Shown here one piece after another: positions 20,448-28,319 of a stretch of DNA of 64,000 nucleotides (position 1 is the stretch's first letter; each line of letters opens with the position of its first letter). The position numbers were made by a program, and so were the translations under genes. The stretch lies in the IMG/VR virus record IMGVR_UViG_3300035663_000001, positions 1 to 64,000 of that record; one strand, given 5' to 3'. The notes beneath the pieces were generated by a model. That model saw only the letters and a list, made by a program, of their open reading frames with translations, had not been told where the DNA came from and did no database searches. The DNA comes from a virus.

Positions 20448-21103
20448 TTTATCCCTCTACTTCTCTCCCAAGCTAAGTTAATATCTTGACTGATAGTAAA
20501 ATACGCCATCCCGGGCGCCTCCGTCAATTGGACCGCAATCCCCACTAATCGACCCTCCCGATCAAAAGCCCCACCTCCACTATTGCCATACCACACCGCC
20601 CCATCCACTTGGATAAATCGCTCCCAGTCCACACGATACCCACTCACTAGTCCATGAGTGTAACTCCAAGGCATTCGGGCCGGATGCCCCACTATGTGCA
20701 CCTCCTCCCCAATCCGAGGCAACCCCGGCCGAATCTCCGCCACTCCATGACTCTTATCCCCATAACTCCTCAAAATACTCACGTCCCGCAAGACATCATA
20801 ATACACCACCTCCGCCTCTCTCCCTCTCCCTTGAACCTCTAACCCCTTAATCTCATTATTCTTAATGTATAAGACCTTCTTCTTCTGGTCTCGAACGCAA
20901 TGCGCCGCTGTCACTATCTCATAATCACTAATCCAGACCCCAGCACAGTTAATTCGTAACTTCCCGCCCATCCACTGCACTAACGCCACCGTCTGATCAC
21001 TCCCTCCTTGATAAATCTCCTCCCCACTCTTAATCACTACTTCCCCTCCTCGTTGACATCCCATCATCATTAGCATCCATAACATTAACATCATCTTCTT
21101 CAT
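20444..21103 (-). CDS. Trypsin-like serine protease, predicted lipoprotein
   Basis: TAAHC, GNSGG; signal peptide ending MGC. Confidence 0.88.
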   Translation of the reverse strand: MKKMMLMLWMLMMMGCQRGGEVVIKSGEEIYQGGSDQTVALVQWMGGKLRINCAGVWISDYEIVTAAHCVRDQKKKVLYIKNNEIKGLEVQGRGREAEVVYYDVLRDVSILRSYGDKSHGVAEIRPGLPRIGEEVHIVGHPARMPWSYTHGLVSGYRVDWERFIQVDGAVWYGNSGGGAFDREGRLVGIAVQLTEAPGMAYFTISQDINLAWERSRGIK

Positions 21104-21349: not shown

Positions 21350-22015
21350 CGCGCTATAAAAATATGCCTCGTTATTTACAATTTTGAAACGTGATAAGAT
21401 ACTTTATCGTTTTTAACGTTTTTTTTTCTACCACTTTGTCCCACTTTTTACCATTTTTAGTGGATGATTACCTCTTTTTTGAGGCGTTTTGAGACCCAAA
21501 AAGTTCAATTGGCCCATTTTGAATTTTCAAAACACCTCTTTTGAAATTATTTAGTCAATCTATTGGGGAGTCCTAAGTTTAACTATGTACTTAGTTGAGA
21601 GTAGTAAGTTAATTTACTGCTCCAGTTGAGAATCTTAAGTTTCCTTAGTTAACTCTTTCACTTTTTACTTATTTTTAGTTGCTTAGTTAACTCTTTAACT
21701 CTGTTCTTATTTTAAGAGTTCTAAGTTTAAGAGTTCTAAGTTTACATATTTACTTATTTGCTTATTTAACTATTTGCTTATTTGGGAGGCCCCAAACCAG
21801 CCTGTCCCCCGAATCCCCCACCTTTTTCCAGCCCGGGAACCCATTAGGCATTCTTCTTGATTCTTAGCAAGAATCAAACCAACAACTAATCAAAGAATAA
21901 CTAACTATTAATTAATAACTTTATTAAGAAGTATTAACTTATTATTAATTAATTGCTTGGCATATTAATTGTTTTTTAGCAAGAAGCTTGCCAAGACTAA
22001 GTAATCTAGTCTTAG
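21350..22015. other. AT-rich non-coding region at strand/skew switch (candidate replication origin or genome end)
   Basis: No ORFs; divergent gene orientation; C-rich plus strand on the left, G-richer on the right; short repeats such as CTAAGTTTA and CTTAGTTAACTCTTT. Confidence 0.55.
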
Positions 22016-22053
22016 TTGGCATTGGTTTTGCTGACTAGCAAGGGACGGACCCT
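21845..22053. promoter_or_regulatory. Three head-to-head pairs of sigma54-like -24/-12 sites
   Basis: Pairs at 21845-21882, 21957-21994, 22016-22053 with GG-N10-G(C)-N6-GC-N10-CC spacing. Confidence 0.6.
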
Positions 22054-22254
22054 AGGACGAAGCGACCTTAAGAGAGCTCGCTTCGCTCTTTTCCCAGCGA
22101 CTAAGTTTTGTCACTGCTCCCTAGGGACGAGCCGTGTCTCTCTCGCCCGAAAAGGGCGCCCTGCTCCTCGCTGGAAAGCTCCCAGCGACTAAGTTTTGTC
22201 GCTCGGTCCTAGTGGTGAGCCCCAGTTCCTTCCCCTCTCACAGTGAGGTGTCTC

Positions 22255-22896
22255 ATGTCCGATGCCATCGATCGTCTACTCTCCGGTTTCGTCTCGGCCT
22301 ACGCTTCGCCCGAACCCACGAAGCAGCTGGTGGAAGTCAAGCCTCCCAAGACTCCAGCCTTCCGCAAGGCCAATAAGGAAGCTCCCACTTCCAGCCTGCT
22401 ACCTCGTGCGGAGCAGATCGACCATCGCGAGTACTTGGCGCGAACCAAGGTCGCAGGCTACATGACAGATCCTGCTGAGGTTCGTCACTTCAACCAAGAT
22501 GCTCATCGCAGCGACATGATCGCAGCGATCAACGCTTTCATCGGCTACGATGTCAGCAAAGACTTCGGCTCTCAGGAATTCCAGGCTCGCAGCCTGGCTG
22601 CTCGTCAGGCTCGCCAAGAGCGAGGGGAGCATCTTCCGGCGGTCTCTAAAACTGAGAAGCAGGAAGCGGCTCGACTCCAGGCTTCGATCCAGGGGTACGT
22701 TTCGGGAGTGCCTGACACGGTCAGCACGCATCGGAACAACCTGGAAGCGAGAGAGCGGCTGGCAGTGGCGGCCATCATTCAGCACGAGCGAGAGGCGGAA
22801 GCGGCTCCGCTCTTCTCGGAAGCGCGCGCCAAGGCAACTGCCCTGGCGCAGTTGGAGCGGGAACGTCTGGTGGAGATCCGCAAGGATCTGTACTGA
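22255..22896 (+). CDS. Hypothetical early protein
   Basis: GAGGTG RBS before MSDAIDR; follows repeat motif. Confidence 0.75.
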   Translation: MSDAIDRLLSGFVSAYASPEPTKQLVEVKPPKTPAFRKANKEAPTSSLLPRAEQIDHREYLARTKVAGYMTDPAEVRHFNQDAHRSDMIAAINAFIGYDVSKDFGSQEFQARSLAARQARQERGEHLPAVSKTEKQEAARLQASIQGYVSGVPDTVSTHRNNLEARERLAVAAIIQHEREAEAAPLFSEARAKATALAQLERERLVEIRKDLY

Positions 22897-23053
22897 GACG
22901 AGCCAGAACAGGAAAGTTATCTCCCATGCCTGACTAACCATTACGCTGGTGCTCAACTTCTTGAGCGTCAGCGGTGGCCGACTCAGCTGTTGCAGACAAG
23001 AACAGGAGCCCTGGCTGATCACCAGGATCTCCTGTTTGGCTTTTTGTTGTTGA

Positions 23054-23168
23054 TTGGCCTAAGAATTGCTAATCTCAATTCTGGTGCCAGTTAAGACTTC
23101 ATTCTAAACTCATGTGGTTGGATGTTTAAGGTTGGCCTATTCATTGCTAAGAGCAGGAAGCAAGCCAG
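23054..23168. promoter_or_regulatory. Two head-to-head sigma54-like site pairs
   Basis: 23054-23090 and 23132-23168. Confidence 0.6.
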
Positions 23169-23352
23169 GAAACATGAGTGCATGAGAGAGCTCGAAGCGA
23201 GCTTCCCAGCGACTAAATTTTTTCACACACCCCTAAGGTTGCCGATGTGGCACGGAACGAAAGGATGGTTTGCAGATTGCTCGGGCAATCTCCCAGCGAC
23301 TAAGTTTTTTCTCGCAGTCCTAGTAGTGAGCCTAGCGCTCAGAAGGATTCAC

Positions 23353-23592
23353 ATGTTGTTCCTGAATGAGGAAGACTACTACGATTGGTTGGAGGAAACT
23401 TCCTTTCCCAATGATACTTGGGAGGAAGAGCGGCGTATGGCGCACCAGTTCGCCAAACAAGAGCGGCTGCAAGAGGAAGCGGAAGAAGAAGAGCGGTTCC
23501 AGGCGCAGCAACGAGATCCGTGGAGAGCGGTGTGTCGAGCCTGGGGACCTTGGGAGCCGGTGTGTCAAGAGGAGCATCCGATTCCGTTCTGA
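23353..23592 (+). CDS. Acidic hypothetical protein
   Basis: AAGGA RBS before MLFLNEED; flanked by repeat motif. Confidence 0.7.
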   Translation: MLFLNEEDYYDWLEETSFPNDTWEEERRMAHQFAKQERLQEEAEEEERFQAQQRDPWRAVCRAWGPWEPVCQEEHPIPF

Positions 23593-23636
23593 CTCCCAGC
23601 GACTAAGTTTTTTTCTCGCAGCCTGAGAGGTGTCTC

Positions 23637-23924
23637 ATGAAGATGGAATATTTGGTCATCAATCCTCTGTTTCCGAAGTGGGATCCGTTGCTGCCGACGG
23701 TGGAGCGGAAAAAGTGGATTCTTCCCAATCATCGAATGGCCAACCAAGTGATGATGCGCCAGATCCAGAAACTGGATCCGTTTCAAGCTTGGGAGGAAAA
23801 TAGACGCTCAGAGGAAGAGAGAGAGGAAGAGGAAGCAGAGCGTTGGATATTCGAGGAATCTCGTGTCCAGAGGGAAACAATGGCGCTCGCGGAAGTTGCC
23901 CGTAAGAGAAACCTCTGGAAGTAA
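23637..23924 (+). CDS. Hypothetical protein
   Basis: GAGGTG RBS; follows motif. Confidence 0.7.
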   Translation: MKMEYLVINPLFPKWDPLLPTVERKKWILPNHRMANQVMMRQIQKLDPFQAWEENRRSEEEREEEEAERWIFEESRVQRETMALAEVARKRNLWK

Positions 23925-23930
23925 AAAGGA

Positions 23931-23960
23931 GAGCCGGTTAGCCGGCTTTCTTGTTTTTCT
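23931..23960 (+). terminator. Intrinsic terminator
   Basis: GAGCCGG-TTAG-CCGGCTT plus T-rich tail. Confidence 0.7.
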
Positions 23961-23963
23961 GTC

Positions 23964-24071
23964 TTGGTCTATTAATTGCAGTCTGCATAATAGATGCCAA
24001 TTGAGTTCTGACTTTTTACCTGGGATGTACTTGTTGGCACACAAATTGCAGCCTAGCAAGGCTCATGCCAG
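23964..24071. promoter_or_regulatory. Two head-to-head sigma54-like site pairs
   Basis: TTGGTCTATTAATTGC-AGTCT-GCATAATAGATGCCAA and TTGGCACACAAATTGC-AGCCTA-GCAAGGCTCATGCCAG. Confidence 0.65.
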
Positions 24072-24286
24072 ACTCCCAGTCACCTTAAGAGGGAGCTCAG
24101 GTTTTCCCAGCGACTAAATTTTTTCGCACACCCCTAAGGTTGCTGATGCGGTACGGATGAACGAAAGGATGGTACGCGGATTGGGGCAATCTCCCAGCGA
24201 CTAAGTTTTGTCACCTACACCTAACGATGTAACACGATGCGTTAGGTTCCCAGCGACTAAGTTTTGTTTCACATGCCTATGATTGA

Positions 24287-24360
24287 GGCCCGGTGACGGA
24301 ATGGCAGACGTGGCGGTTTTAAAAACCGCTTTCTTGTGGGTTCGACTCCCACCCGGGCCA
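24287..24360 (+). tRNA. tRNA-Leu(TAA), short variable region
   Basis: GGCCCGG/CCGGGCC acceptor, GCGGT-TTTAAAA-ACCGC anticodon arm, GTGGG-TTCGACT-CCCAC T arm. Confidence 0.85.
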
Positions 24361-24394
24361 CCCAGCGACTAAGTTTTGTCAAAGGAGACTACAG

Positions 24395-24568
24395 ATGAGC
24401 AAGTTGTTGGTGGTGGTAGCGGCCATGTTTGGGGTGGTGATGGCGATCAAGATGTTTGCTCCTGCGGCCTGGGTCGCAGGGTTCACCATTCCGATCGGCA
24501 GTGGGATTCAGTTCCCCTGGGCGCTGGTCATCCTGGGAGGGTTCTTCTATCTGGTGTGGACCAAGTGA
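24395..24568 (+). CDS. Small membrane protein (57 aa, not in ORF track)
   Basis: AAGGAG RBS; MSKLLVVVAAMFGVVMAIKMF...FFYLVWTK. Confidence 0.7.
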   Translation: MSKLLVVVAAMFGVVMAIKMFAPAAWVAGFTIPIGSGIQFPWALVILGGFFYLVWTK

Positions 24569-24711
24569 TCTATCGCTTGGTAATCAAACATCCCACGGGA
24601 GTACTCCGTCTAGACTACTCCTCTCTGTCAGCTGCCCAACAAGAGCTGTCCCGTTTCCAACGGGACCACTGGGAGGGTTGGATTCAACCCATTCCACAGA
24701 GGAAGTCATGA
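24565..24711 (+). CDS. Small hypothetical protein
   Basis: GTGA overlap with upstream stop. Confidence 0.5.
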   Translation: MIYRLVIKHPTGVLRLDYSSLSAAQQELSRFQRDHWEGWIQPIPQRKS

Positions 24712-24809
24712 TGCGTGAGGGTGCGGTGCTGGTGTTGGTGGCGGTCCTGCTGTCTTTGCTGGTGGGCTGGTGTTTGGGGAACGCCTTTCTGTGGTCCCTT
24801 GGCGGATGA
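24708..24809 (+). CDS. Small single-helix membrane peptide
   Basis: GAGG RBS, ATGA overlap, hydrophobic. Confidence 0.5.
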   Translation: MMREGAVLVLVAVLLSLLVGWCLGNAFLWSLGG

Positions 24810-24847
24810 CTCCCAGCGACTAAGTTTTTTCTCCCGGAGGTTAAAAG

Positions 24848-25213
24848 ATGAATGCACTCCAGTTGAATCAACTCTTGGACGAATGTCCTCGTGAGACCCG
24901 ACATCTGGCACAAGCTTGGTATCAAGCCTCGCAACAGATTCGGAAGATGTCTCATGGCATCGATCCAGATCACATCCGACCCTTGGGCGATGACGAAACC
25001 GTTCTTTTGGTGGAACGTGCGGAAGGCTTGTGTGTGTGGCAGCAACGAGAAGCGATGGTCAATCTCTTTGCGGCTCCTCACATGAGTCCTCCCAAGTTCT
25101 TCATCATCGAATGTCTGAAGATCGATCAACAGATCGAATTCCACCTGGCTGTCCAGCGGGTGCAAGATCTGGGTCCAGACTACGTTTTTCGAGAGCTGTG
25201 TAAGTCCAAGTAG
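24848..25213 (+). CDS. Hypothetical protein
   Basis: GGAGG RBS; follows motif. Confidence 0.75.
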   Translation: MNALQLNQLLDECPRETRHLAQAWYQASQQIRKMSHGIDPDHIRPLGDDETVLLVERAEGLCVWQQREAMVNLFAAPHMSPPKFFIIECLKIDQQIEFHLAVQRVQDLGPDYVFRELCKSK

Positions 25214-25598
25214 TCAAACCTACTACTGGCGTTGACTCAACCTCCTACGTATAGGAATAAGTGATGCCACCGCGCTAGGATAGTTTCGTCATCCCTCCGG
25301 ACCACCAGCTCGTAAAGTAGGCTGCGGTGGCTGACGAAACGATAACCCTGATAGTTTACCTGGTCCAGATGTGAACAATCAAAAAAGTGTGTGTTTTGGT
25401 GTAAAACTCTATCACAGATAATAATAGGGTTATCGATATGTGAAGTTCACATTACATAGTTGCATCCTCGGGAAGCATCCGCTACGCTGACAGTCTCAGG
25501 TAGCTCTAGGTGTTAATCCCCTTCTGTCCCATGAGACGCCGGACATATCTGGGTCATTGTCGTGACAGCCCCTAATCCATTAACCCTAAAACGGGTGG
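25214..25598 (+). ncRNA. Candidate large structured ncRNA
   Basis: ORF-free, several long-range complementary segments, ends at a terminator. Confidence 0.5.
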
Positions 25599-25631
25599 GC
25601 CTCGCTTCTCTTCGGAGAGCGAGGCTTTTTT
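25599..25631 (+). terminator. Intrinsic terminator
   Basis: GCCTCGCT.CTC-TTCG-GAGAGCGAGGC plus T6. Confidence 0.85.
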
Positions 25632-25641
25632 CGTTTCTACC

Positions 25642-25815
25642 TTGGCCTTGTCTTTGCATTCTGCAATCTGTAGACCACTTACTTGATTCCTCTCATCTAT
25701 CACACATACTCTTACCTTGGCATACCTATTGCTAATAACAGGAAGTAGACCAGTAAAGTTTTACCAGGAATGCACTTAATGGCATCTTAATTGCAATTAG
25801 CATAAAGTGAGCCAC
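25642..25815. promoter_or_regulatory. Three head-to-head sigma54-like site pairs
   Basis: 25642-25678, 25717-25753, 25779-25815. Confidence 0.65.
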
Positions 25816-25904
25816 GGAGTCACTCACCTAATACGCGTAAAGGGAATTCCCAGCGACTAAATTTTGTCACCTACCCCTATGGTTGCCGATGCGACACGAT
25901 ACGA

Positions 25905-25920
25905 TGGCACGCAGGTTGCT
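25905..25920 (+). promoter_or_regulatory. Consensus sigma54 site TGGCACGCAGGTTGCT (second copy 26076-26091)
   Basis: Exact match to TGGCACG-N4-TTGC(A/T). Confidence 0.65.
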
Positions 25921-26152
25921 AAGTCAACTTCCCAGCGACTAAGTTTTGTCACACTCTCCTAAGGGTGCGAGACGATGCGAAAGGATGAACGCGCTACTGG
26001 CACGCTACTGGCTGACACGGTTTCCCAGCGACTAAGTTTTGTCACTCTCCCCTAAGGATGCAAGACGCGAGCGGATGGCACGCAGGTTGCTAAGTCAACT
26101 TCCCAGCGACTAAGTTTTGTCGCTCTTCCCTCATGATGCGAGACGGTAACTA

Positions 26153-26204
26153 AGGCGAAACCATCTGAGATGGTCTAATGGTAGGAACCATTACTGACGA
26201 GCCT
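26153..26204 (+). ncRNA. Type II hammerhead ribozyme (minimal)
   Basis: AGGC-GAAA-CCATC/GATGG-TC^-TAATGGT/ACCATTA-CTGACGA-GCCT; predicted cleavage after 26175. Confidence 0.85.
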
Positions 26205-26296
26205 AACTAGTCTACGAAACACCAGCACTAGTCTTAAGTGTCGTGTTGGTCACTAGGAGGGATCATACCCTCGGCAGTGGTGATACTACTTGGCCA

Positions 26297-26362
26297 GTCT
26301 TCTGGCATGACGGAGCCTTGGTGTGGTAACCAAGCCAGGTTCGATACCTGGAGAAGACCCCA
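26297..26362 (+). ncRNA. Minimal tRNA-like element
   Basis: GTCTTCT/AGAAGAC acceptor, CCAGG-TTCGATA-CCTGG T arm, non-canonical D and anticodon arms, ends C-CCA. Confidence 0.6.
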
Positions 26363-26426
26363 GCGACTAAATTGTGATCTCGAAGTCTGACATGGTGTGA
26401 GACTTCCCTACAGAAAGGATACCAGT

Positions 26427-27041
26427 ATGACGCCCAAGATGTTTTTGCACAAGTCGGGAACCAAAGCGGCGGCTTCGGCCAGTGCCTTCCTGGCGGCTCA
26501 CCGGACCTTTCTGGAAACGGGAGAGCTCTATCCGGTCACCGGCCCGATTCTGGCCAAGTTGGATGCCAAAGAGCTGATGCCGACTCCGGCCTTGTCGGAA
26601 TTGCGTCAAGTGATTCTCAATCACATGATTGCCTCCGAAGTGTCCAAGTTGGAGCGAGCGCACGAAGTGACGGAGCGCACGCCCAAAAACTGGCAAGTCA
26701 CCATCTATACCTCCGAAGGCAAGGTGGCGCAACGTTTCAAGACCGAGGACCAGGAATGGGTGGATCTGGTGGCCGAATTCGACCAGCCCCAAGAGGCCGA
26801 TCGTTGGGCGGACCGACGATTGTTCGAGGGTGAGCACGATTGGTTTGCCGTGGTGTCTCATGCCACGCAACTCAACAAGCATGGTCAACTGCTCTCCTCT
26901 ACCATCACTCGTCAGGATGCCATGGCACGAGTCTTGGCATCCAAGCCTGGACCCGTGATCAAGGGTCAAGCCAAGTCGTCGGGTCGGTTGGGATGGGGCG
27001 TCAAGTCGAAACCCAGTGTCAGCAAGTTTTCGGCGGGCTGA
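26427..27041 (+). CDS. Hypothetical protein
   Basis: AAGGA RBS; flanked by repeat motif. Confidence 0.75.
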   Translation: MTPKMFLHKSGTKAAASASAFLAAHRTFLETGELYPVTGPILAKLDAKELMPTPALSELRQVILNHMIASEVSKLERAHEVTERTPKNWQVTIYTSEGKVAQRFKTEDQEWVDLVAEFDQPQEADRWADRRLFEGEHDWFAVVSHATQLNKHGQLLSSTITRQDAMARVLASKPGPVIKGQAKSSGRLGWGVKSKPSVSKFSAG

Positions 27042-27148
27042 GTCCCAGCGACTAAATTTGGTCGCACTTTCCTGTCTGACACGAGACGACAGGTAGTGAC
27101 ACGGTTTCCCAGCGACTAAGTTTGGTTACACTTCCCTACAGGTGGAAC

Positions 27149-27337
27149 ATGCAAACCCGGGAACAAGGCAACTGGTATCCAGCCAATGGTGGGACGGAAG
27201 AGGAATTCGTTACCCGGACGGGCAGAAGGCTGCTCTATTGTTGGCAACCGAGCACTGGGCGCCATGCCTATCTCGACTGCTCCACCGACCTGATCCTCTC
27301 CGAGGAGGAAGCTTCTCAAGTTCTTAATCTCTCTTAA
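27149..27337 (+). CDS. Hypothetical protein
   Basis: AGGTGG RBS before MQTREQG. Confidence 0.65.
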   Translation: MQTREQGNWYPANGGTEEEFVTRTGRRLLYCWQPSTGRHAYLDCSTDLILSEEEASQVLNLS

Positions 27338-27384
27338 CAACAACAACAACAACAACGGTTTCAGGTTTCAGAGGAGATACGCAT

Positions 27385-27819
27385 ATGTCCAGTTTTTCGA
27401 TCAACGTGGTTCTGGTTCGTGATGAGGTGACGGGTGAGGTGGATGAGGCTGCGACCACGCAGGCATTCCAGATGGCACTGAGCCGCTACAAGGCCCAGCG
27501 TGAGCTGGAGGACACCACCATCGGATCGAATGTCCATGCGGCTTTCGATCAGTATCCCGGTGTGTTTCTGCCGATGGAGAGTCTGATCAGTGGGGTGGTC
27601 CAGGCTCTCAATCCGACTCCGGAGAACTTCTCGGTGCTGAAGGAGAAGGTGACGGCCTACATCCACGACAACGCCGACCGTCAGGAGAAGAAGGATCGCA
27701 AGTCGGGTGAGGTCATCCAGCTGGCTGAGCCTCCTCGCACCCGAGCTTTCGGGATTCGCAGGGGCAAGGGTGGTGGGATCTGTCGGTGGTCCGACGTGAA
27801 GGAGAAGGCGGAGAAGTGA
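27385..27819 (+). CDS. Hypothetical protein, paralog of 47410..47829
   Basis: GAGGAG RBS; shared AEPPRTR.FGIR.G.GGG.CRWSD. Confidence 0.8.
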   Translation: MSSFSINVVLVRDEVTGEVDEAATTQAFQMALSRYKAQRELEDTTIGSNVHAAFDQYPGVFLPMESLISGVVQALNPTPENFSVLKEKVTAYIHDNADRQEKKDRKSGEVIQLAEPPRTRAFGIRRGKGGGICRWSDVKEKAEK

Positions 27820-27828
27820 AGTGACACA

Positions 27829-27873
27829 TCCACCAGGTTCCTAGGTTCACTCTGGTGAACCTGGTGGGTTTTC
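27829..27873 (+). terminator. Hairpin / probable terminator
   Basis: CCACCAGGTTC...GAACCTGGTGG followed by TTTT. Confidence 0.55.
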
Positions 27874-27874
27874 T

Positions 27875-28023
27875 GACTCAATGACAGAATGGTTTCTGTT
27901 TCCAATTAGTACTGATTGGAAGTGAATACTCAGGGTGAGTGTTCACCGACTCAGTATGTTGGCCAAAGGATCGATACGATGGTCAGCATATCTATGAGTG
28001 TAGGTTCGATTCCTACCTGAGTC
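27875..28023 (+). ncRNA. Expanded tRNA-like RNA, copy 1
   Basis: GACTCA/TGAGTC acceptor, ACAGA-ATGGTT-TCTGT D-like arm, three internal hairpins, GTAGG-TTCGATT-CCTAC T arm. Confidence 0.7.
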
Positions 28024-28028
28024 TCCCC

Positions 28029-28140
28029 CCCGACAGAATGGTTTCTGCTGTTTATCTACAGGTTCGCTGAGCTTGATTCTGAGGTACGGGTCGACACGAC
28101 TCAGAGTTAAGTCTTGGTGTAGGTTCGATTCCTACTCGGG
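28029..28140 (+). ncRNA. Expanded tRNA-like RNA, copy 2
   Basis: CCCGA/TCGGG closing stem, same D-like and T arms. Confidence 0.6.
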
Positions 28141-28149
28141 CTTTTTTTT

Positions 28150-28319
28150 GACTCAATGACAGAATGGTTTCTGTTTCCTGTAATTAGTTCACATTAGTTC
28201 ACACAGGAAGTGAACACTCAGGTGTACCCTCAGTGTTTGCCGACTCAGTTAGGTTCTGGTTAAAAGGTACACGTTTGCCAGCATCTAGCTGAGTGTAGGT
28301 TCGATTCCTACCTGAGTCA
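28150..28319 (+). ncRNA. Expanded tRNA-like RNA, copy 3
   Basis: Acceptor, D-like and T arms identical to copy 1, divergent internal hairpins. Confidence 0.7.

Follow-up and report, generated by a model that had tools for sequence, protein, structure and literature searches.

An array of ten face-to-face site pairs that resemble the -24/-12 core of sigma-54 (RpoN) promoters lies in the early region of an uncultured phage, at 21.8-26.1 kb of the IMG/VR virus record IMGVR_UViG_3300035663_000001. The contig comprises 128,541 bases, of which the first 64 kb, hereafter the window, are the stretch analyzed here; because CheckV rates this contig as only 28% complete, the phage is taken to be very large. 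The elements are probably read by the sigma-54 RNA polymerase of the host. Our preferred interpretation, to which we assign a probability of about 0.4, is that they serve as tandem, two-way, enhancer-dependent early promoters that dock this polymerase. What was observed directly is the motif, together with how it is enriched, where it is placed and the fact that it recurs in other phages; face-to-face pairs are widespread in phages rather than private to this one.

Ten face-to-face pairs of sigma-54-like half-sites

An earlier reading of the window (the original prediction) had reported ten elements of this kind, and all ten are present (Table 1). Each element spans 35-36 bp and follows the pattern TGG-N10-GC, 5 or 6 bp, GC-N10-CCA. 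As had been claimed, the N10 spacing is kept in all 20 half-sites. Both the GG and the GC doublet are found in 16 of the 20, while the remaining four carry GA or GT in place of GC (left halves of dyads 1 and 2, right halves of dyads 4 and 9), again in agreement with the earlier description; the exact pattern GG-N10-GC-N5/6-GC-N10-CC occurs in six of the ten dyads. The left half of dyad 1 begins with AGG and the right half of dyad 3 with GGG. The plus-strand halves conform to TTGGCMT-N5-TTGCW and fit the sigma-54 core best; the minus-strand halves are looser, with GG and GC retained. When the four clusters are aligned, TTGG(C), TTGC, AGCA and CC are invariant and the intervening bases vary. As the bases between the boxes are unpaired, the pattern is one of protein recognition and not of an RNA hairpin.

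The -24/-12 consensus is printed as TGGCACnnTTnTTGC in PMC8743547. We scored sites with a weighted sigma-54 consensus (maximum 14.5, cut-off for strong sites 12). Across the contig 42 sites reached the cut-off, as compared to 17.5 +/- 3.8 (maximum 28) in 100 shuffled sequences, and the enrichment anticipated by the original prediction was thereby found; 17 of these 42 sites fall into the 21.8-26.1 kb region. Exact dyads with a gap of 5-6 bp number eight in the contig, against a mean of 0.78 and a maximum of 4 in 300 block shuffles. Six of them are located at 21.8-26.1 kb, where 0.19 were expected (maximum 3 in 2000 shuffles). A fixed-gap pattern with up to two mismatches was weakly enriched (4 vs. 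1.36; 7 of 100 shuffles reached 4). Among the 20 dyad halves, 13 score 12 or higher. TGGCACG-N4-TTGCW, the sigma-54 consensus employed for counting full matches, is matched completely by four 16-mers of the contig (25905, 26076, and on the minus strand 73496 and 79152). The likeness of the half-sites to the core TGGCAC-N5-TTGC is strongly supported, both in this phage and in the other phages described below. Sigma-70-type promoters are not enriched in the dyad region (3 vs. 5.6 expected). TTGGCA was also considered as a sigma-70 -35 box and was rejected, as no -10 box was seen at the proper distance on reading through the sequence.

The placement of the clusters is regular. Genes are oriented rightward from 22.2 kb onward, and cluster 1 occupies the sole divergent junction, with a leftward operon on one side and the rightward early genes on the other. 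The small genes at 22-28 kb match no Pfam family; small genes without known family are typical of phage early regions. Half-site strength tracks gene direction here: in cluster 1 the minus half is the stronger one in dyads 1 and 2 and the plus half in dyad 3, and in clusters 2-4 the plus half scores at least as high as the minus half in six of seven dyads. The original prediction had also placed a terminator-like hairpin ahead of three of the four clusters, and such hairpins indeed precede clusters 2, 3 and 4; no hairpin signal was detected ahead of cluster 1 (z +0.3).

Behind every cluster, a second motif of this phage follows, CCCAGCGACTAA (hereafter the CCCAGCG motif), whose tandem occurrence had likewise been noted. 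It begins 44-51 nt past the transcription start predicted from the last dyad. The contig holds 26 copies, between 22093 and 61574 in the window and up to 96215 in the contig, all of them on the plus strand, though roughly one gene in four is leftward. The motif extends to TCCCAGCGACTAARTTTTKTC, and most copies continue to CCTARG, 27 nt from the motif start. It is found 34-74 nt ahead of start codons, in tandem around non-coding units of 45-90 nt, and also immediately behind the 3' ends of tRNAs or tRNA-like structures (24362, 26360, 28321). Within the two collections searched, every other record has it at most once. The pattern CCCAGCGACTAARTTTT matched at 3 loci in viral contigs and 49 loci in metagenome contigs, always with one match per record, and these matches are therefore read as chance. 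The CCCAGCG motif might act as a promoter for some polymerase or factor; alternatively, it might be a processing site or 5' leader of an RNA.

Solo half-sites accompany the pairs. The two perfect solo sites that had been reported at 25905 and 26076 are present, and altogether four plus-strand solo sites sit in short non-coding units between CCCAGCG motifs. In all four cases, counting 12 nt on from the -12 C leads to the first C of the CCCAGCG motif that follows, with 10-nt spacers of three different sequences. These cases are not fully independent, because the units that hold them are paralogous. Four late solo sites are located 6-15 nt upstream of a CCCAGCG motif, just past the stop codon of the preceding gene, and this position between stop codon and motif is held by four of the six strongest sites outside the array. 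Such a placement cannot be due to chance. The late solo sites were also evaluated as RNA hairpins and this was discarded, as they fold no better than shuffled sequences.

Table 1. Dyads, solo sites, hairpins and second-motif copies. Dyad coordinates run from the T of TGG to the A of CCA; sigma-54 scores of the half-sites are given in parentheses.
Feature	Position	Strand	Cluster	Details
Dyad 1	21846-21881		1	plus AGGCATTCTTCTTGAT (10.5), gap 6, minus TGGTTTGATTCTTGCT (12.0)
Dyad 2	21958-21993		1	plus TGGCATATTAATTGTT (11.5), gap 6, minus TGGCAAGCTTCTTGCT (14.0)
Dyad 3	22017-22052		1	plus TGGCATTGGTTTTGCT (13.5), gap 6, minus GGGTCCGTCCCTTGCT (11.5)
Dyad 4	23055-23089		2	plus (12.5), gap 5, minus (11.5; GA for GC)
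Dyad 5	23133-23167		2	plus (12.5), gap 5, minus (12.0)
Dyad 6	23965-23999		3	plus (11.5), gap 5, minus (12.5)
Dyad 7	24035-24070		3	plus TGGCACACAAATTGCA (14.0), gap 6, minus TGGCATGAGCCTTGCT (14.0)
Dyad 8	25643-25677		4	plus (12.5), gap 5, minus (11.5)
Dyad 9	25718-25752		4	plus (13.5), gap 5, minus (8.5; GT for GC)
Dyad 10	25780-25814		4	plus (13.5), gap 5, minus (12.0)
Solo site TGGTTTGCAGATTGCT	23266-23281	+		-12 C plus 12 nt = first C of CCCAGCGACTAA at 23292
Solo perfect site TGGCACGCAGGTTGCT	25905-25920	+		10 nt ahead of CCCAGCGACTAA at 25931
Solo site TGGCACGCTACTGGCT	25998-26013	+		10 nt ahead of motif at 26024
Solo perfect site TGGCACGCAGGTTGCT	26076-26091	+		10 nt ahead of motif at 26102
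Late solo site TGGCACGGTTCGTGCT	47178-47193	-		between stop codon at 47177 and CCCAGCGACTAA at 47203
Late solo site beyond window	contig 71084/71100	both		
Late solo site beyond window	contig 73496	-		
Late solo site beyond window	contig 79152	-		
Terminator-like hairpin + U run	23000-23045	+		ahead of cluster 2; -22.6 kcal/mol, z -2.5
Terminator-like hairpin, T runs on both strands	23927-23958			ahead of cluster 3; z -4.5
Terminator-like hairpin + U run	25597-25633	+		ahead of cluster 4; z -4.5
CCCAGCGACTAA, 18 of 26 copies	22093-28331	+		behind each dyad cluster, ahead of each early gene or small non-coding unit

According to the promoter interpretation, each element would contain two -24/-12 cores placed nose to nose, with the -12 GC doublets 5 or 6 bp apart. 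Transcription would start about 12 nt past the -12 C. As the -12 Cs are 6-7 bp apart, the two predicted starts would flank the dyad centre and face away from each other. The original prediction, whose comparison of the half-sites with the sigma-54 core is supported, had argued that both halves cannot be productive promoters; as stated this is not supported, since the geometry would permit either direction. Occupancy would be either-or, because each polymerase would melt the core of the other. As the two halves would not be productive simultaneously, the element would act as a two-way promoter that is used by one polymerase at a time. The dyad clusters would head four early transcription units, with the plus halves driving the rightward early genes and the minus halves driving leftward transcription at cluster 1. 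At clusters 2-4 the minus halves would yield only short leftward transcripts, which run into the upstream hairpins. The complexes would presumably be opened by an activator of the host, or by a phage activator of unrecognised kind.

Recurrence in other phages and comparison with known systems

A first scan of viral contigs with the pattern TGGC-N7-TTGC-N5/6-GCA-N8-GCCA matched at least 119 viral loci, and 17 of the 119 among the matches listed hold two to seven relaxed pairs. When whole records were counted, 16 pair-bearing records had 2-9 pairs each, and the reversed-pattern control gave 0 throughout. The pairs group in stretches of a few kilobases within records of 88-433 kb. No pair was found in six other phage records of 1.7 Mb in total, comprising five named or uncultured phages (978 kb) and the 735-kb record LR756501.

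In a second scan the central gap was left free between 0 and 24 bp. A sharp excess appeared at gap 4 (29 loci), and gaps 5 (10 loci), 7 (8), 3 (6), 8 (6) and 6 (5) followed, with 0-7 loci at each of the remaining gaps. In 72 pairs with gaps of 3-7 bp (144 half-sites), positions that the pattern did not demand agreed in most half-sites with the sigma-54 consensus, namely A5 (133), Y6 (137), R7 (130) and W16 (119), whereas the controls with gaps of 8-24 bp were random-like at these positions (42, 55, 65 and 56 of 104). Beyond the seeded pairs, TGGCAY-N5-TTGC occurred 247 times in 211 loci, as compared to at most 20 times for other internal spacings (N2-N9). The gap between the halves differs even within single arrays of other phages, in which periods of 41-47 bp are found. 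The sequences suggest a 16-bp half-site as the unit of recognition, alone or paired, with a rigid internal spacing and pair gaps of 3-7 bp. The variable gap, the rigid half-site and the occurrence of solo half-sites therefore argue for two separate sigma-54 cores rather than for a rigid dimer.

With regard to placement, 15 of 24 pair clusters lie between leftward and rightward gene arms, as compared to 127 of 724 positions drawn at random from these loci, gene arms being assigned by a crude dominant-strand measure and several of the loci being mutually related. This location at divergent junctions fits two-way promoters and also operator arrays. In five of the loci (L102, L107, L085, L143, L166) the pair centres often read TGCT-CCCC-AGCA or TGCT-GGGG-AGCA; such a centre makes the dyad polar and is reminiscent of CCCAGC, with which the second motif of the present phage begins. 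Another locus, L086 (record G024, 43.6 kb, rated 100% complete), combines a three-pair array with genes for a PurZ-like adenylosuccinate synthetase and a dATP/dGTP pyrophosphohydrolase. On account of these two genes its DNA may contain 2-aminoadenine, which would bear on how any protein reads the sites.

A cultured phage carries the element as well. In Pseudomonas putida phage phiPMW (KU862660), a pair with a gap of 4 bp is located at 8495-8528 and is followed, 120 nt on, by a perfect solo site at 8649. Both lie within a gene-free gap of 700 nt, downstream of an annotated terminator, and precede a sigma-70-type promoter and then the small gene gp21, whose small neighbours are annotated as hypothetical. 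The order of terminator, sigma-54-like sites, another promoter-like signal and small gene is the same as in the window. Unlike the window with its ten pairs, phiPMW has a single one under the strict pattern, and a sigma-70-type promoter takes the place of the CCCAGCG motif. The pair is not annotated in KU862660, and a term search of the text of the phiPMW paper (PMC5587285) returned no mention of sigma-54.

Pseudomonas phage YuA is the known precedent for a phage that reportedly uses host sigma-54 at some promoters; it is reported to depend on sigma-70 as well as on sigma-54 (PMC10914365, citing Ceyssens 2008), and its record NC_010116 annotates three active '-24/-12 consensus' promoters. The YuA sites differ in being single, weak-scoring and located in the structural gene region, with neither pairs nor arrays nor an early-region placement. 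Bacterial enhancer-dependent sigma-54 promoters such as glnAp2, nifH and pspA share with the elements the bipartite core with its rigid GG-N10-GC and also the flanks, i.e. T before GG, A-Y-R after GGC and W after GC. In contrast to these, the predicted cores oppose each other 5-6 bp apart, come two or three to a cluster and reside on a phage. The early promoters A1-A3 of phage T7 are tandem, one-directional sigma-70 promoters that need no activator, and RNase III cuts between the T7 early genes. The likeness consists in host-polymerase promoters that are stacked ahead of an early unit and followed by a repeated intergenic signal; the sigma factor, the single direction and the independence from an activator set T7 apart. 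The lambda-type repressor operators OR1-3, finally, have a fixed 17-bp geometry with contiguous half-sites. They resemble the present arrays in that two to five dyad-symmetric sites stand in a row, often between divergent gene arms, and differ from them in that the half-sites here are 16 bp long, bipartite, also found solo and separated by a variable gap.

Possible readers of the sites and rival explanations

Sigma-54 is the only bacterial sigma factor that is unable to start transcription without an ATP-driven activator. We favour the promoter interpretation because of where the elements are placed, the direction bias within the window and the solo sites, whose start register is exact. A number of observations weigh against it. 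Neither the DNA-binding domain of sigma-54 (Sigma54_DBD) nor the AAA+ domain of its activators (PF00158) was found in this contig, which represents 28% of its genome, or in a further 20 records with pairs, three of which are 97-100% complete, and the GAFTGA motif is missing from the six frames of the contig. Dependence on an activator is an odd choice for early genes and leaves the activator itself unexplained. The promoter interpretation also presumes a host that has rpoN. In other phages the stronger half is unrelated to gene direction: the left half scored higher than the right in 7 cases, lower in 4 and equal in 1 in ++ contexts, and the corresponding numbers were 7, 7 and 5 in -- contexts. 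Sigma-70-type promoters stand between the sites and the gene in phiPMW, and between the array and the downstream genes for an AT-hook/DUF5681 protein and terminase in locus L117, and for this reason the sites need not be working promoters; in the present phage the CCCAGCG motif could replace the sigma-70-type promoters in this role. Three late solo sites on the minus strand point back into the end of the upstream gene, which a plain promoter leaves unexplained. The YuA fragments annotated as -24/-12 promoters gave no strong match by our sigma-54 score, and the assembled RNA contigs that match the phage yielded no start sites.

Given that neither sigma-54 nor an activator was found in these records, the factor that reads the sites, if it is sigma-54, would be that of the host, and so would any activator, unless the latter is of an unrecognised kind. 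As for the host, the nearest Atlas clusters of the phage-encoded EF-Ts belong to Planctomycetota and Chlamydiota, which we treat as a lead only, and a search with the GMP-reductase gene gave a single match, to a 4.4-kb contig of a metagenome bin. A T7-type polymerase was not found, a weak negative as the control genomes gave no match either. Sigma-70 region 2 was not found among the phage-encoded proteins, and the sole match to sigma-70 region 4 is a weak one in a GIY-YIG/HTH protein. No repeated upstream dyad that might represent an activator site was recognised ahead of the clusters. The block TTTTACCWGGRATGYACTT is located directly upstream of dyads 7 and 10 (24005-24034, 25753-25779) and is a candidate for an upstream activator or bending site, the sole one seen.

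A plausible alternative, which had been put forward by the original prediction and which we hold to be only somewhat less probable, is that the sites do not initiate transcription and instead park the host sigma-54 holoenzyme, whose closed complexes are stable without an activator. The parked polymerase might form an insulator or roadblock at the borders of transcription units, a store near the real promoters, or a sponge that drains host sigma-54, and the real promoters would be the CCCAGCG units here and sigma-70 promoters in other phages. Such a role agrees with sites that follow terminators and precede another conserved promoter-like motif, with the sigma-70-type promoters downstream of the sites in phiPMW and L117, with the absence of an encoded activator from all 21 records and with the tight 41-47-bp packing of the arrays elsewhere. 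It also fits the late solo sites between stop codon and next CCCAGCG motif, three of which face oncoming transcription and form no RNA hairpin. Against parking, half-site strength tracks gene direction in the window and the solo plus sites stand in exact start register with the next motif, and the enrichment at divergent junctions suits two-way promoters at least equally well.

We consider it unlikely that the elements are operators of another phage or host DNA-binding protein that shares the sigma-54 motif, for instance a repressor of the early units, or a winged-helix protein that binds in tandem to 11-bp-spaced TKGCA repeats. Dyad symmetry, arrays of two to five sites at divergent control regions as in the lambda operators, and solo sites in either orientation beside the CCCAGCG motif are what such a protein would lead one to expect. 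In about 20 loci the array lies directly to the left of a gene for a 128-amino-acid AT-hook/DUF5681 protein and that of the large terminase, which is in keeping with an operator; against it, none of the open reading frames at 19-29 kb of the window is related to this protein. No Pfam DNA-binding family was detected in nine early-region proteins (nine of the ten proteins scanned; 28% of the genome is represented). Operators would have to coincide with the sigma-54 consensus at 12 positions, including positions that had not been searched for. Their half-site boxes differ systematically (TGGCA vs. TTGC), unlike repeats bound by identical subunits. The dimeric phage protein that the original prediction offered as an alternative is less likely in its rigid form: the operator of a dimeric repressor is expected to have a fixed distance between its halves, whereas the gap is 5 or 6 bp here and 3-7 bp elsewhere, mixed within arrays and set against a rigid half-site spacing, and solo half-sites are abundant.

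Adjacency to the likely small and large terminase genes, which is seen just downstream of the array in one group of other phages, might also suggest a packaging or replication signal, i.e. a binding array of the small terminase or origin iterons. This appears very improbable. A pac or cos array is expected at a single locus beside the terminase genes, whereas the present phage has four separate clusters heading units of small genes of unknown family, and its solo sites extend over 80 kb; pairs in large phage genomes are spread over 4-90 kb, and the motif is that of sigma-54.

We regard it as a speculative and rather improbable extension that nose-to-nose pairs in general represent a widespread, undescribed class of control element with which phages capture the sigma-54 polymerase of the host on the genome that enters the cell. 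In such an element the two -12 distortions, 3-7 bp apart, may assist DNA opening so that no conventional enhancer-binding ATPase is needed, or the pairs may hold the polymerase locked next to the phage promoters, where it would form a barrier and reservoir that can be switched.

The phage, its early region and implications

The stretch occurs in lake-water or freshwater metagenome runs. Two DNA sequencing runs contain the same strain, with zero differences within the dyads. Phage genes use the Shine-Dalgarno sequence GGAGG. The contig encodes a helicase, GMP reductase, a class II aminoacyl-tRNA synthetase, EF-Ts, RNA ligase and many repeat proteins, as well as the ThyX and Ro60-like proteins described below. 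A blastn search with 21.5-29 kb against the phage collection gave no match, protein-seeded searches with the 629- and 213-residue early proteins found no relatives, and in relatives reached via the helicase TGGC-N7-TTGC is not in excess. RNA contigs from two studies extend over portions of the early genes and over the segment 25184-25583, which lacks genes; the dyads lie outside this coverage, from which nothing follows as to their transcription. The segment, which ends at a strong terminator, is matched by RNA-library contigs of 400, 193 and 152 nt from the two studies and is a candidate for an abundant non-coding RNA. An Rfam scan of the phage DNA returned nothing but tRNAs above threshold.

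Further features of the contig were recorded. GC skew is -0.59 to -0.70 along 18001-21000 (3 kb), where genes occur on both strands. A tRNA with anticodon CTA is located at 55943-56018 (named tRNA-Pyl by ARAGORN; 52 bits with the Rfam tRNA model). It is a possible amber suppressor; the genes of the phage were read with the standard code. The ThyX gene (5343-7088, minus strand) is split by an intein that carries an HNH endonuclease. A Ro60/TROVE-vWA protein is encoded at contig positions 92936-94489 (L077:10936-12489); bacterial Ro proteins pair with tRNA-like Y RNAs, and the respective operon is sigma-54-dependent in Salmonella. A Y RNA was not found by Rfam. Two TnpB/Cas12f-like (OrfB_IS605) genes are present at contig positions 99275-100534 (minus strand) and 118043-119191 (plus strand).

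Sigma-54 promoters are textbook knowledge and YuA is a phage precedent. In line with the original prediction, which knew of no described phage system of this kind, our literature search found no paper on face-to-face pairs or their arrays in phages, and we know of no phage that builds its early programme on sigma-54. What the present case contributes is an array that is larger than any other so far in a single early region, together with gaps of 5-6 bp and a fixed link to a second, phage-specific motif. If sigma-54 polymerase reads the pairs, many uncultured phages, huge ones included, would be affected. Their early genes would then be tied to the physiological state of the host, or the closed complex would be used as a barrier, reservoir or sponge. 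Either way this would be new phage biology, and it would make available a two-way control element that is both compact and portable. Since the same element is carried by a cultured phage-host pair, phiPMW on Pseudomonas putida, the question can be tested directly.

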